From Escherichia coli (GTDB lineage Bacteria; Pseudomonadota; Gammaproteobacteria; Enterobacterales; Enterobacteriaceae), in assembly GCF_030013595.1 (NCBI RefSeq), contig NZ_CP122768.1: a DNA stretch of 64,000 bases; one strand, given 5' to 3'. This document shows positions 9,001 to 15,000 of this stretch, piece by piece (the first letter of the stretch is position 1; every line of letters starts with the position of its first letter). Made by a program: the position numbers.

Positions 9001-12000
9001 GTTAAGGGATACTGGCGGCATAAAACCCCATGAGCGTAAGCGGGCTGTAGCTCACCTGACACTGTCTGAGCGCGAGGAGATACGAGCTGGTTTGTCAGCC
9101 AAAATGAGCATTCGTGCGATAGCTACTGCGCTGAATCGCAGTCCTTCGACGATCTCACGTGAAGTTCAGCGTAATCGTAAGCGTACAGCCTGAACCGTCT
9201 GGTCAGAATCTGACGAATTAGACAAAGTGGTGTCCAACAAATAAGTAGTGGGAACCAAAGTATCAGATATGCAGAAAAATGTGACTCCCGGCAGGCGAAA
9301 AGGCTGCCCTAATTATCCTCCCGAATTTAAACAGCAGCTCGTTGCTGCCTCCTGTGAACCCGGGATATCCATCTCAAAACTTGCTCTTGAAAATGGCATT
9401 AACGCCAATCTGTTGTTCAAATGGCGACAACAATGGCGCGAGGGAAAGCTGCTATTACCTTCTTCAGAGAGCCCCCAGCTACTTCCTGTGACTCTCGATG
9501 CAGCTGCCGAACAGCCAGAATCGCTCGCAGAGGACCCGGAAACCCTCAGTATCAGCTGTGAGGTAACGTTCCGGCACGGGACGCTCCGCTTCAATGGCAA
9601 TGTCAGCGAAAAGCTCCTGACTCTGCTGATACAGGAACTGAAGCGATGATCCCGTTACCTTCCGGGACCAAAATTTGGCTGGTTGCCGGTATCACCGATA
9701 TGAGAAATGGCTTCAACGGCCTGGCTGCGAAAGTACAAACGGCGCTGAAAGACGATCCCATGTCCGGCCATGTTTTCATTTTCCGGGGCCGCAGCGGCAG
9801 TCAGGTTAAACTGCTGTGGTCCACCGGTGACGGACTGTGCCTCCTGACCAAACGGCTGGAGCGTGGGCGCTTCGCCTGGCCGTCAGCCCGTGATGGCAAA
9901 GTGTTCCTTACGCAGGCGCAGCTGGCGATGCTGCTGGAAGGTATCGACTGGCGACAGCCTAAGCGGCTGCTGACCTCCCTGACCATGCTGTAAATCTCTT
10001 TATCCTGGTTGTCACAGAATAAGCCCGGTAAAATACGGGCTTATGAACGACATCTCTTCTGACGACATCTTCCTGCTGAAACAGCGCCTGGCCGAACAGG
10101 AAGCGCTGATCCACGCCCTGCAGGAAAAGCTGAGCAACCGGGAGCGCGAAATAGACCATCTGCAGGCGCAGCTGGATAAACTCCGCCGGATGAACTTCGG
10201 CAGTCGTTCCGAAAAAGTCTCCCGCCGTATCGCACAAATGGAAGCCGATCTGAACCGGCTTCAGAAAGAGAGCGATACGCTGACTGGTAGGGTGTATGAC
10301 CCGGCAGTACAGCGTCCGTTGCGTCAGACCCGCACCCGTAAGCCGTTCCCTGAATCACTACCCCGTGACGAAAAGCGACTGTTGCCTGCGGCGCCGTGCT
10401 GCCCGAACTGCGGCGGTTCACTGAGCTATCTGGGCGAGGATACCGCCGAACAGCTGGAGTTGATGCGTAGCGCCTTCCGGGTTATCCGGACGGTACGGGA
10501 AAAACATGCCTGTACTCAGTGCGATGCCATCGTGCAGGCACCTGCACCTTCGCGGCCCATCGAGCGGGGTATCGCCGGACCGGGGCTGCTGGCCCGCGTG
10601 CTGACCTCGAAGTATGCAGAGCACACCCCGCTGTATCGCCAGTCAGAAATATACGGCCGGCAAGGTGTGGAGCTGAGGCGTTCACTGCTGTCGGGCTGGG
10701 TGGATGCATGCTGCCGGCTGCTGTCTCCGCTGGAAGAGGCGCTTCATGGCTATGTCATGACTGACGGCAAACTCCATGCCGATGATACCCCGGTCCAGGT
10801 ACTGCTGCCGGGTAATAAGAAGACGAAGACCGGGCGGTTGTGGGCGTATGTTCGTGATGACCGCAATGCAGGGTCAGCGTTGGCACCTGCAGTGTGGTTC
10901 GCTTACAGCCCGGACAGAAAAGGCATCCATCCGCAGACTCATCTTGCCTGCTTCAGCGGTGTGCTGCAAGCGGATGCGTACGCCGGGTTCAACGAGCTGT
11001 ATCGCAATGGTGGGATAACGGAAGCTGCCTGCTGGGCTCATGCCCGCCGAAAGATCCACGATGTGCACGTCCGCATCCCGTCAGCACTGACGGAAGAAGC
11101 CCTGGAGCAGATCGGTCAGTTGTACGCCATAGAGGCGGATATAAGGGGAATGCCGGCAGAGCAGCGGCTTGCTGAACGTCAGCGAAAAACGAAACCGTTG
11201 TTGAAATCCCTGGAAAGCTGGTTGCGTGAAAAGATGAAGACCCTGTCGCGACACTCAGAGTTGGCGAAGGCGTTCGCGTACGCACTTAACCAGTGGCCGG
11301 CACTGACGTACTATGCGAACGATGGCTGGGTGGAAATCGACAACAACATCGCTGAAAATGCCCTGCGGGCGGTCAGTCTGGGTCGTAAAAACTTCCTGTT
11401 CTTCGGCTCTGATCATGGTGGTGAGCGGGGAGCGCTACTGTACAGCCTGATCGGGACGTGCAAACTGAATGACGTGGATCCAGAAAGCTACCTTCGCCAT
11501 GTGCTTGGCGTCATAGCAGACTGGCCGGTCAACCGGGTCAGCGAACTGCTTCCGTGGCGCATAGCACTGCCAGCTGAATAACACATCCCCGTCAATACGG
11601 CCCTCGCTGTACGCTTACGCGTAATCGGGGCAGACGCTATTACAAAGCTGTTGATGCTAATAACCGAGCCAACAGAATGGCGAAAAGGCCAAAACCGTGC
11701 TTACTGGATCAAAATTTACCATTGCGAAAGCTTGTTCTGGAAAAGCTGGAGATGAAATGGTCTCCAGAGCAAATATCAGGATGGTTAAGGCGAACAAAAC
11801 CACGTCAAAAAACGCTGCGAATATCACCTGAGACAATTTATAAAACGCTGTACTTTCGTAGCCTGATTACCACTATAAAAAGGCTGCTATTGAGTATGTT
11901 GCTCAGATGCTCATATCAAATATCGGTAATCTTGAGGAATACACATTTGTTCCCGTACCACCATCCAAATGCCGTACAGATGCCGCTTACGATGACCGTA

Positions 12001-15000
12001 TGACAGAAATTCTGCGAATTGCGCAAACCTACGAACCATGGCTGGATTTCTGGGAACTGGTTGTGCAAAACGTATCAACAATAGCCTCTCATACCGCAAC
12101 AAACCGGCCCTTACCAGAAGCGATTATGGCAAACTACCAACTGGATGAACAATTACTGGAAGGGTGCAGGCCCTAGATTGTTATTTTTGATGACGTTCTC
12201 ACTGCCGGTAGTCATTTTAAAGCGATGAAAAGCCTGATACTACAACATATTCCTGAAGCCTGTATACTGGGACTCTTTGTTGCCCGAACAACCCGGGGAG
12301 CTCAAATTATTTAAAAAGGGTAAAGTACTCCTTAAAATTAAATCACTGATTCATCGCCGTCAGCTATAATCCTGTACCCCATCGCTTTATAACCCCGCTG
12401 ACGTTTATCCCACATTCTGAGCAGCACAGGATACGCGGTATCCACAAAATCAATGATCCTGACATCGCTTTTACCGGTATGCTCTCTGTGAAGACGCCCT
12501 GCATACTGCTGTAATGTCCCTTTCCATGACACAGGCATGGCAAGAATCAGCGTATCCAGCGGAGGGTGGTCAAATCCCTCACCAATAAGTCTGCCTGTTG
12601 ACAACAAAATTCGAGGAGAATCGGGAGGAAGAGCATTCAGCCCGGATATCAGCATCGCACGCTTTTTTTTCGATAGTCGACCATGGAGAATAAAGGGAGA
12701 CAATTTCAGTGAATTCATCACTGATGCTATCTCATCCAGATGATCTGTACGTTCAGTCAGTACCAGAACTTTTCGCCCCTGCCCGAAAGCTTTCATGGCT
12801 TCTTCAGCTATCGCCACCGTTCTGTCATGATCCAGAGCAATTTCTCTGAAAATATCCTGGATTCTCGCATCCGATGGTAAATGACCAGATGTAAAACGGG
12901 AACGGATCAGTACCTCCAGATTATGTGGGCTTTCCTTCGGGCGGACCGCTGTATGGCGAATGGCACCACAGTACATAAAAATAATGGGATGCAGACCATC
13001 CCGTCGGATTGGTGTTGCCGTCAGGCCAAGCAGATATCTGGCATTCGTTTCCTTCAGAATCGCAGAAAATGAAACCGCGCCAATATGATGGCACTCATCC
13101 ACAATGATTTGCCCATAATTCCTGACCAGAGGTTCAACTTCTCCTTGTCTGGATATGGACTGCACCACCGCAATATCAATATTGCCACAGGGTTTATGTT
13201 TACCTCCCCCGATAATACCAATACTGTCACCGGCCTGCAGAAACACCGCGAGACGCTCCTGCCACTGCTTCAGCAATTCAGTCCGGTGTACCAGTATCAG
13301 TGTATTCACTTTCCGCTTGGCAATCACTGCCGCTGCGGTAACTGTCTTACCAAAAGCCGTTGGCGCACAAAGCACACCAGTGTCATAACGGAGTAATGCC
13401 GAAACGGCCTCTTCCTGCTCCGCTCTGAGGTTTCCCATAAAAACGGCATTACATTCCGTCCCGGCAAATCGTTTATCGATTAATTCTGCAGCAATATTGT
13501 TGTCCCTAAGGAAAGATAATACGCTGTCCAGACATCCCCGGGGCAACGCAATGTGTTGCGGGTAATTCTCCGCACAACCTATAACACGGGGCTTATTCCA
13601 GACTGACATACGCATTGCCTGAGCCTTATAAAACTCAGGGTTCGGAAATGCTGCCAGCCGAATAAGTCGGTTAATCAGCACCTGAGGTAATTGCGCTTTT
13701 TCGAAATAGATCTGGTTTGCCAGCGTGATTTTCAGCGGTTCTGCAATAGAAATATTCAGTCTGTTTCCTGATGATTTTTTCTCTTCCCACGGCGTACCCA
13801 GGTCTTCTTCGTTGATAAAATTCACATCCAGAGGATGGATACTCCCTGTAGCCCGTAATATCGTCGGTTCAATATCCTGCACATTCATCGGGGTCACCGA
13901 TACAAGAAAAGCCCACTGATCAGGATAAGGCTGGAGATTCATATCAACAAAAACGCTTCCCCCCAATTCACGCGGTCTTTTTTGCAGAGGTAACGCTATG
14001 AGATTACCAAATCCCCCTTTTGGCATAGTATCCTGATTAGGAAATAATCGGTCATAAGACCCCAATCGCAGCTGTCGGGTCCGACTACACGTATAGCTAA
14101 TAATAGCAGTCCCCAGACGGCGAGCTTCGCGGGCCGAAACTCGTGAGGCAAAAAATATCCAGACATGCGCCCCCTGACGTGAACGGGATATTTCCAGCGC
14201 AGCAGGTACACCCAGCTCATCACAGGATCGCATGAATGCGGATGCATCCTTCTGCCATTCAGCTTCATCAAAATCAACTGCCAGAAAATAACAGGAATCA
14301 TCTTCCAGCAACGGATACATCCCGACAGTATGGGTACCGGCCAGATGGTGGTAGATGACGAGATCGGATACAGGAATCAACTGACGGTGAGCGCAGTCCC
14401 CACATTTTATCCGGGGTTTACCGCATATTCTCGCCTGCCATTCGTTAGCGCAGGCAGGAGAGTACCCTGATTTGCCGCTGGTTTTACTTTCCCATCTAAG
14501 TGCCCATACATCATCACGCCCACGAAACAACCGACGAAATAATGCAACCTTCTCGTCGGTGGATAATACAGAAACGCGCTGCACAGGAGTCTGCGGTTTA
14601 CGTCGCCATTCAATCCCATGAGCTTCAAGTAATGAGACCAGACGGGCATTTTCTGCCCTCAATGCAGCTAATTCATCACTGTCAGATTTATGAACCATAT
14701 TCGTTACCTGTATCCGATCCACTGAGGCACCACGGCAGAAATTCGGGTCCCCTACACTGATGACAAAGCGCCCCGCCCTCTTCTGCCTATTAACTCAAGC
14801 ACCTCCCAACAACTTACAGAAACTTAATTCTAATACCTAATACAGCTGTAATTCAGTTATGTCGTGGTCGGCCCCGGTTACTTTTTTCGGGAAGCCTGCT
14901 ACGCCTCAGAATAATACCGTGTTCTTTCTGATCCTGTTTGGCCAGATAGCTAAGGGCGTAACGTAAGTCGTCTACCGCAGATTTATCACTATAGTGAATT

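Follow-up and report, generated by a model that had tools for sequence, protein, structure and literature searches.

Whether a primase-helicase gene and the decayed phosphoribosyltransferase (PRTase) gene that faces it in an Escherichia coli island belong to one system is the question raised by the locus described here. It lies in a stretch of 64,000 nucleotides (nt) of contig NZ_CP122768.1 (assembly GCF_030013595.1), which is called the window throughout and to which the coordinates of the features refer. A preliminary description of the window had taken a 794-amino-acid (aa) open reading frame (ORF) with primase-like and helicase regions, together with a convergent PRTase remnant, for a possibly decayed NTP-dependent conflict system or else for a replication module of the element. 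Our analysis favours another answer, which we hold to be probable: past an int-alpA-yfjI-yfjJ backbone, two independent cargo modules stand tail to tail, the one an intact fusion of a primase-polymerase (PrimPol) with a helicase, for which a conflict function is favoured, and the other a dead ShosTA system. The features of the PrimPol-helicase are listed below (AEP, archaeo-eukaryotic primase; SF2, superfamily 2; pLDDT, predicted local distance difference test; dN/dS, ratio of nonsynonymous to synonymous substitution rates).

12338..14722, minus strand: PrimPol-helicase fusion gene, 794 aa from a GTG at 14722 (ORF list, RefSeq annotation of the identical sequence, Pfam, dN/dS)
14621..14719, minus strand: long N-terminal helix, aa 2-34 (AlphaFold2, block pLDDT 56-85)
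13868..14554, minus strand: AEP/PrimPol catalytic domain, aa 57-285, with DxD (D150, D152), H186 and D224 (Pfam, PADLOC, PDB, Foldseek, conserved residues)
14393..14449, minus strand: Cys cluster C92, C100, C107, C110 inside the PrimPol module (family consensus SPxCxNEWxxGxCxKPxxKCxxC)
13475..13735, minus strand: small alpha/beta domain, aa 330-416, between linker and helicase (AlphaFold2 secondary structure, pLDDT)
12443..13432, minus strand: SF2 helicase core, aa 431-760, XPB/Rad25-RadD-UvsW-like, motifs I, II, III and VI intact (Pfam, PDB, Foldseek)

All the motifs by which the 794-aa ORF had been recognised (VDFDEAEW, APTAFGKT, DECHH, GLTATP and QQYAGRLHR) were present in the translation of 12338-14722 (-). 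RefSeq starts the protein at the ATG at 14698 (M9), giving the 786-aa WP_000233452.1 with the name 'TOTE conflict system archaeo-eukaryotic primase domain-containing protein'. The N-terminal region, previously called AEP/PrimPol-like by eye, matched the Pfam family AEP-TOTE (PF22548) at aa 57-285 with an E value of 2.4e-98 over model positions 1-228 of 230, and DNA_primase_S at 1e-7; the PADLOC model PrimPol PDLC01465, which is labelled CRISPR-associated, was matched across its full length (E 2.5e-147). In a profile search of the PDB the nearest entries to this part were those of the PrimPol domain of a CRISPR-associated primase-polymerase (CAPP; 7nqd/7nqf, E 6e-29), and Foldseek matched it to the CAPP structure 7nqe with a target template-modelling (TM) score of 0.78. 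The four clustered cysteines are each the majority residue in the consensus of an alignment of 31 sequences (35-61% identity) and make up a putative Zn-binding element.

The C-terminal part was likewise confirmed as a complete SF2 helicase core, with its motifs intact and Pfam matches to ResIII (E 7e-24) and Helicase_C (E 1.5e-7). Its motor was nearest in the PDB profile search to archaeal XPB (XPBII, 6p4f, E 3.6e-33), followed by SauUSI-like, UvsW and RadD proteins, and the top Foldseek matches were XPB/Ssl2, UvsW and RadD; the NCBIfam model repair_heli_XPB was hit with 60 bits against a cut-off of 610. The AlphaFold2 model (pLDDT 87, predicted TM score 0.79) laid the protein out as a helix at 2-34, an AEP fold at 55-292, a disordered linker at 302-318, an alpha/beta domain at 330-416 and two RecA lobes. 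In this model the N-terminal helix is a possible coiled-coil or dimerisation element. The alignment to XPB chains extended over ~500 columns, beyond the length of the two RecA lobes, and the alpha/beta domain may be the counterpart of the XPB damage-recognition domain.

The catalytic residues of both halves are conserved. In the alignment of 31 sequences, D150/D152 of AEP motif I (VDFDEAEW), H186 of motif II and D224 of motif III were invariant or nearly so, and the same held for helicase motif I APTAFGKT (Walker A; G458, K459), motif II DECHH (D542-E543-C544-H545), the GLTATP motif and motif VI QQYAGRLHR (Q739, G742, R743, R746). Within E. coli the gene gave a dN/dS of 0.21-0.22; against Pantoea and E. 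albertii the ratio was 0.11-0.12, with such values for each of the three protein parts when compared with Pantoea, and the gene is under purifying selection. The decay that had been proposed for the locus is real for the PRTase module, which is dead, and does not extend to the helicase gene. RefSeq gives the latter as a complete coding sequence in both of the loci with a truncated neighbouring pair that were opened (L001, IS30-type; L003, IS66-type; loci retrieved for comparison bear numbers with L), and the rows listed for genomes with a truncated pair carry the full-length product name. More than 150 representatives of clusters at 50% identity match the protein essentially over its full length, and homologues with E below 1e-30 number ~3,300. 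A short frameshifted 5' fragment of a diverged PrimPol-helicase gene (87.5% identity) survives in the sequence type 131 (ST131) E. coli NZ_CP051609.1 (L102, 8023-8233), where it adjoins the aerobactin and pap clusters, and the listed matches H169-H174 show the same partial coverage.

The second module is represented by the following features (PRPP, phosphoribosyl pyrophosphate).

11862..12314, plus strand: pseudogene remnant of shosT (PRTase toxin), codons ~58-208 of 208 (translation, alignment to the intact genes of L002 and L004, PADLOC)
12174..12176, plus strand: nonsense codon TAG at W165 (TGG in the intact copies), just before the PRPP-binding motif IVIFDDVLTAGSH (DNA alignment)
11620..11861, plus strand: internal fragment of an IS30 transposase gene, running to ...TLYFRS and meeting shosT at the deletion junction (ORFs; RefSeq 'IS30 family transposase, missing N- and C-terminus')

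To judge from its sequence, the PRTase remnant is the dead ShosT toxin of a ShosTA (DprA-PRTase) system. Translation of 11865-12341 (+) reads DYHYKK...FVPVPPSK...GCRP, then a stop, then IVIFDDVLTAGSH...GAQII and a stop. Homology to intact shosT begins at window position ~11862, directly after the truncated IS30 transposase fragment, and from codon ~58 the remnant aligns base for base with the intact 208-codon genes of two other E. coli loci (L002, L004); at the nonsense codon the aligned DNA reads CCCTGGATT against CCCTAGATT. The PADLOC ShosT model was matched with E 9e-15 by the fragment and with E 2.2e-50 by the intact homologue of L004. In both intact loci a 297-aa DprA-like gene (PADLOC ShosA, E 4e-103) lies upstream of the 208-aa PRTase gene and overlaps it by 4 nt. 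A deletion that runs from inside the IS30 copy took away shosA together with ~57 codons at the start of shosT, and because the promoter, shosA and these codons are gone and the TAG lies upstream of the PRPP-binding motif, active toxin can no longer be produced. The decayed state, the in-frame TAG and the junction with IS30 had thus been seen correctly in the preliminary description; its estimate that half of the gene remained falls short of the ~73% retained, and the loss of shosA has to be added. The IS30 copy itself (window 8882-11862) is split by a complete IS66-family element, ISEc8 (tnpA, tnpB and transposase; ~9248-11581), and is also truncated internally where the shosT remnant begins.

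Among 5,426 complete E. coli genomes the pair was intact in 42, cut by the IS30-bounded truncation of the window in ~460 and reduced to a shorter, IS66-bounded remnant in ~185, which makes ~645 genomes with a truncated pair. The full three-gene locus is carried, for example, by E. coli M19 (NZ_CP010221) and by pECWJ-1. What the intact pair does is known from relatives: a DprA and PRTase pair located in a P2 prophage hotspot gives protection from the phages T7 and lambda (Rousset 2022, PMC9122126), and the ShosTA of E. coli APEC O1 is a type IV toxin-antitoxin (TA) and abortive-infection system whose PRTase toxin perturbs purine metabolism (Pu 2025, PMC11961720; NAR 2026, PMC12961424) and which was proposed to sense single-stranded DNA (ssDNA) replication intermediates (PMC12961424).

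The two genes converge, with their stop codons 23 nt apart (12314 versus 12338), and are therefore not co-transcribed. A promoter and terminator scan of 11600-15600 found no terminator in the 23-nt gap, and promoter-like sites were no more numerous than in shuffled sequence. Linkage was then followed in 83 loci with a PrimPol-helicase, 80 of them from a scan of one genome per species across many bacterial phyla and three fetched earlier, in which partners were sought by tblastn and phmmer. No PRTase was found in any of the 83 loci. A DprA-like gene occurred in one, and this was PsyrA (PADLOC E 1e-125) of the separate PsyrTA/RqlHI family. Homologues of YfjJ, YfjI and AlpA were also absent from the 83 loci, save for one marginal AlpA-like tblastn match in L072. 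Conversely, PRTase homologues (55-76% identity) in Salmonella, Serratia and Klebsiella always kept their DprA partner, and no PrimPol-helicase lay within 7 kb of these ShosTA-like pairs; the Serratia pair sits in a P2-like prophage hotspot, between gpA and the portal gene. Intact homologous loci, the search for which had been recommended, do exist in E. coli with a full PRTase and a DprA-like gene (L002, L004), and the diverse loci offered none with a PRTase. The single primase-helicase-PRTase system envisaged earlier finds no footing in these results, given the missing PRTase and the autonomy of the pairs elsewhere, and the precedent invoked for it, the joint occurrence of the three components in NTP-dependent conflict systems, could not be traced in Kaur et al. 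2020 (PMC7159879), where the words PRTase, primase, AEP and DprA do not occur. The PrimPol-helicase and the ShosTA remnant thus appear from this pattern to be two independent cargo modules, neighbours rather than one system. As an observation on the locus with PsyrA (L077, a Bryobacterales genome), the gene lies at 14021-15343 (-), encodes 440 aa of RqlI type and stands 1.7 kb downstream of the PrimPol-helicase; the intervening 287-aa ORF has no PADLOC match.

Both modules stand at the end of an island backbone whose genes are as follows (HTH, helix-turn-helix).

18312..18620, minus strand: alpA-like HTH regulator of excisionase type (PHROGs excisionase and transcriptional regulator families; RefSeq 'helix-turn-helix transcriptional regulator')
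16237..17687, minus strand: yfjI-like DUF3987 gene, two ORFs here (ORFs; Pfam DUF3987 E 8e-76 on the L001 copy)
14853..15416, minus strand: yfjJ-like gene (inovirus Gp2-type / YagK-YfjJ family), last gene of the conserved backbone (RefSeq name; Pfam REP_ORF2-G2P E 8e-4)

The window is 100% identical to an integrative island of tellurite/urease type that E. coli O157:H7 and other Shiga toxin producers carry, and the host island is thus a CP4-57-like island of this O157 type. Along the minus strand the order is integrase, a 605-aa orphan ORF (itself on the plus strand), an IS1 remnant, the alpA-like, yfjI-like and yfjJ-like genes and the 794-aa ORF. E. coli Nissle has the same backbone, from int through the 605-aa ORF, IS1, the HTH gene and DUF3987/yfjI to yfjJ, followed by different genes and without the PrimPol-helicase; CP4-57 of K-12 lacks it too and carries abpB/abpA at the corresponding position, on the opposite strand to yfjJ. 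Alleles of yfjJ were found without the PrimPol-helicase, and the PrimPol-helicase without that yfjJ. When aligned to the L001 copy, the yfjI-like gene is split by the loss of 1 nt from a G7 run (window 17103-17111, where six G remain), with an immediate TAA, which makes it either a pseudogene or a homopolymer sequencing error; the copy of strain TR01 has a 48-nt in-frame deletion instead.

The distribution of the PrimPol-helicase is patchy, and the gene is horizontally mobile. The fusion was absent from 50,697 phage genomes and present in 96 of 72,556 plasmids. Plasmids of Pantoea stewartii and E. albertii carry a gene of 81% identity as a passenger of Tn3-family transposons, with the resolvase on one side and the transposase on the other (L099, 7010-9400; L100, 7004-9394), and the Pantoea plasmid has a separate RepA gene for its replication; on an Aeromonas plasmid the PrimPol-helicase lies between CBASS-like/NYN genes and WYL plus type I restriction-modification (R-M) genes. 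Neighbours in the 83 loci were analysed by clustering ORFs at positions -4 to +4, by a Pfam census of the 257 proteins that flank the gene at positions -2 to +2, read as the 20 most frequent families per set, and by a seed search within 5 kb. Within that distance AbiEi/AbiEii pairs were found in 13 loci, RhuM and/or DUF6155 in 15, type I R-M genes with YhcG in seven, Tn7-like tnsABC-tniQ in six, and Schlafen/AlbA_2, AAA_21, SNF2-SWIM, PIN, Fic and AAA_14 in 18 loci together; NCBIfam had no match for the neighbour families.

Three kinds of neighbour recur. In at least 10 of the 83 loci (L006, L039, L051, L052, L054, L055, L057, L066, L077, L085), and also in L068, the gene is immediately preceded by a same-strand AbiEi-AbiEii pair, mostly with gaps below 100 nt (160 nt in L051 by ORF calls); these upstream pairs fall into three sequence clusters from several phyla, are the most frequent recurrent neighbour, and could form a real operon-level association with the PrimPol-helicase. 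A protein of ~185 aa with a weak DUF6155 match is encoded nearby in 11 loci of Betaproteobacteria, Opitutales, Paenibacillus and Acidobacteria, upstream in L014, L017, L021, L023, L037, L040, L045 and L058 and at other positions in L053, L069 and L009, often preceded by RhuM and type I R-M genes. In L042, L064, L065 and L067 the PrimPol-helicase is directly beside a Tn7-like tnsA-tnsB-tnsC-tniQ module.

On this context, a stand-alone conflict role is the most likely biological role of the PrimPol-helicase. The gene is an intact single-gene module, in whose product a CAPP-like primase-polymerase is joined through a flexible linker to an XPB-like SF2 translocase or helicase. We infer that the ATP-driven motor would load on duplex or branched DNA and open or unwind the strands, and that the PrimPol domain would then receive single-stranded template, prime de novo and extend while displacing the strand ahead, which is the activity of CAPPs in vitro. 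On the DNA of an invader, whether phage or plasmid, priming and displacement at the wrong time would disrupt replication.

Other explanations have to be weighed against two independent modules. One is that the locus is a decayed three-component system, in which the PrimPol-helicase, the PRTase and the lost DprA-like protein cooperated after the manner of ComFA-ComFC-DprA or RqlH-RqlI and the helicase was left orphaned. Such a combination does recur: in RqlH/RqlI a toxic PRTase is fused to a RecQ-like helicase and has a DprA-like counterpart, and the competence genes comF and DprA have been discussed as a parallel combination (PMC4670107). The PrimPol-helicase could moreover generate the ssDNA intermediates that ShosTA is proposed to sense (PMC12961424), and in every E. 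coli genome seen it is adjacent to, and convergent with, a ShosTA-like pair or remnant, the stops 17-23 nt apart. However, no E. coli copy falls below 93% identity, so that all belong to one lineage in which adjacency is not independent evidence. With no PRTase in the 83 diverse loci and a sole DprA-like neighbour that belongs to PsyrTA, with ShosTA-like pairs standing alone in three other genera and sufficing for defence and TA behaviour (PMC9122126, PMC11961720), and with the helicase gene still under purifying selection and complete in the truncated-pair loci opened, we regard this explanation as improbable. Slightly less credible still is a role as replicase of the excised island, together with the DUF3987 helicase YfjI and the Rep-like YfjJ. 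The gene lies directly downstream of alpA-yfjI-yfjJ in the same orientation, YfjJ weakly matches the inovirus replication protein G2P, and mobile-element PrimPols are often replicases, one of them paired with a DUF3987 helicase (PMC11724360). Yet the motor is an XPB-like SF2 protein and not of the replicative hexameric type, the phage genomes have no copy, the three plasmid loci opened were a Tn3-family element or a defence island, a plasmid carrier has its own RepA, and in the window yfjI is frameshifted while the PrimPol-helicase is intact. The backbones of Nissle and CP4-57 without the gene, the uncoupling from yfjJ, the missing YfjI and YfjJ homologues in the diverse loci, the transposon and defence-island settings on plasmids and the absence from phages all argue for mobile cargo and against a replicase, so that the self-replicating primase-helicase suggested in the preliminary description is disfavoured.

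The main alternative, possible and yet unlikely in our estimation, is an accessory role in DNA repair or damage tolerance, with repriming, gap filling after transposition and XPB-like opening of lesions and with no attack on invaders. The XPB/RadD-like motor would suit it, as would carriage inside Tn3-family elements and beside Tn7-like transposition genes; the PrimPol AgaPP shows translesion synthesis and microhomology-mediated end joining (PMC11724360), and PMC12439943 places the E. coli PPRT in the oxidative damage response. Against it stand the neighbours, which are mostly TA, R-M and other conflict genes and not repair genes, the patchy and horizontally mobile distribution, and the closest PrimPol relatives, which are CRISPR-associated. 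Rather less likely again is a single-gene immune effector that would make DNA de novo wherever it has opened the strands, and whose ssDNA or primer products would feed neighbouring type IV TA sensors, ShosTA in E. coli and the AbiEi/AbiEii pairs of at least 10 of the 83 other loci, although this would explain the repeated tight linkage to such modules. Several points weigh against the two independent modules with a conflict function that we favour. Published experimental tests of the PrimPol-helicase family were not found, recent E. coli defence screens and the EDL933 defence study included, and for that reason the case for defence is one from context. At least one of the conflict or Tn7-like neighbour types counted above lies within 5 kb in 48 of the 83 loci, a raw count with no background rate. 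Mobile-element PrimPols can serve repair or replication, as AgaPP illustrates (PMC11724360). PADLOC has no system built on the PrimPol-helicase, its single strong model being the one labelled CRISPR-associated, and the remaining components of the TOTE system that the RefSeq name suggests did not turn up at the locus. The constant adjacency in E. coli belongs here as well, and the RqlH/RqlI precedent of helicase, PRTase and DprA lends some plausibility to a functional link specific to that lineage.

Some further features of the island lie outside the two modules. The 605-aa ORF at 19720-21537 (+), between the integrase and the alpA-like gene, occupies an AT-rich stretch (33-38% G+C) and is conserved in the same backbone of E. 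coli Nissle and O17; it had no significant match in Pfam and none in PHROGs or PADLOC. Just upstream of the IS30 copy lie an IS600 fragment and traT (7272-8742). Further upstream, at 6659-7224 (+), two short overlapping ORFs correspond to consecutive parts of the PADLOC 'Type II specificity subunit' model (E 2e-10 and 2.5e-25), and this looks like a frameshifted fragment of an R-M specificity gene.

Both elements are already catalogued, the fusion in RefSeq and Pfam and ShosTA in PADLOC and the literature, and the architecture of the PrimPol-helicase is itself known (PMC8211822). If the gene does serve defence, bacterial immunity would gain a single-protein mechanism based on a polymerase, alongside the defence-associated reverse transcriptases (DRTs) and the CRISPR-associated PrimPols. 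Its carriers are O157:H7 and other Shiga-toxin-producing E. coli, often with two copies, in which phage traffic shapes virulence. The locus also illustrates how the cargo regions of islands stack unrelated conflict modules that IS elements then erode, and how the name given to a product, 'TOTE conflict system ...' for instance, can come from a transfer at the level of the domain and be silent on the local system. The PrimPol-helicase is widespread, is carried by pathogenic E. coli and shows repeated tight linkage to type IV TA pairs.

Compared with known systems, the locus shares single parts with several. TOTE systems (TPR, OB, TBP, Effector; Aravind, Iyer and Burroughs 2022, cited in PMC12458937) gave the AEP domain of the protein its name in Pfam and at NCBI, and the gene lies in conflict-type neighbourhoods. 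No TPR-OB (cold-shock domain) gene is annotated in the island, and none was seen among the listed census families or the identified recurrent clusters of the 83 loci; a gene for a TATA-binding-protein (TBP)-like protein is likewise not annotated in the island or present among the listed neighbour families. As no gene of either kind was found, the name does not apply here at the level of the system. Membership of a TOTE system was not supported, the AEP-TOTE effector domain, on which the RefSeq name is based, being present without TPR-CSD or TBP genes in the annotation or among the listed neighbours.

The motor, over residues ~330-790, has its best sequence and fold matches in the XPB/Rad25 translocases (archaeal XPB-Bax1, XPB of TFIIH), RadD and T4 UvsW, with which it shares the ResIII type and the DExH motif II. 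It differs from them in that no Bax1-like nuclease partner is present here, that those helicases do not come fused to a PrimPol, and that the NCBIfam models of XPB/RadD-type families gave 60-66 bits against cut-offs of 610-720. AbpAB (YfjL/YfjK) of CP4-57 resembles the locus in its island family (int, alpA, DUF3987 yfjI, yfjJ) and in having an SF2 helicase gene just past yfjJ. The parallel with CP4-57 drawn in the preliminary description therefore holds for gene order and position; it does not reach the helicase, since YfjK lacks a PrimPol domain, is encoded on the other strand from yfjJ and shares an operon with abpA. No abpA (yfjL)-like gene adjoins the PrimPol-helicase in the ORF list or the RefSeq annotation. 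Homology to YfjK/AbpB was rejected, the BLASTP match being 23% over 148 aa (E 0.008) in the Walker A region alone.

RqlH-RqlI/PsyrTA and ComFA-ComFC-DprA bring a helicase together with a ComF-like PRTase and a DprA-like protein, the three activities that stood side by side in the intact E. coli ancestor. Those systems have their parts fused or co-transcribed and use a helicase of RecQ-like or ComFA type, whereas the helicase gene here is convergent, has a PrimPol and is unlinked to PRTase or DprA outside Escherichia. To ShosTA itself the likeness is direct, for the remnant fits the PADLOC ShosT model, its intact relatives form a ShosA and ShosT operon and the PRPP-binding motif is recognisable; the difference is that the system in the window is dead, with shosA and the 5' end of shosT deleted and a nonsense codon in what is left. 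The ShosTA studied in APEC O1 did not appear as a close DNA match of the pair described here, which consequently represents a different allele group.

The CAPPs are demonstrated DNA primases and polymerases with strand displacement (Zabrady et al. 2021, PMC8211822). No cas gene, cas1 and cas2 included, is annotated within ~14 kb on either side in the identical RefSeq locus, although the window was not scanned for CRISPR repeats, and the NCBIfam equivalog of CAPP type A1 (PrimPol_Msp) scored 83.6 bits against a cut-off of 200, so the PrimPol-helicase is no orthologue of the CAPP enzymes that have been studied. Relatives of CAPPs outside CRISPR loci are reported to be, for the most part, PrimPol-helicase fusions carried by mobile or transposable elements (PMC8211822), and it is these CAPP_A-type PrimPol-helicases (PF22548) that the protein resembles, in domain family, in the order of PrimPol before helicase and in its residence in a mobile element.

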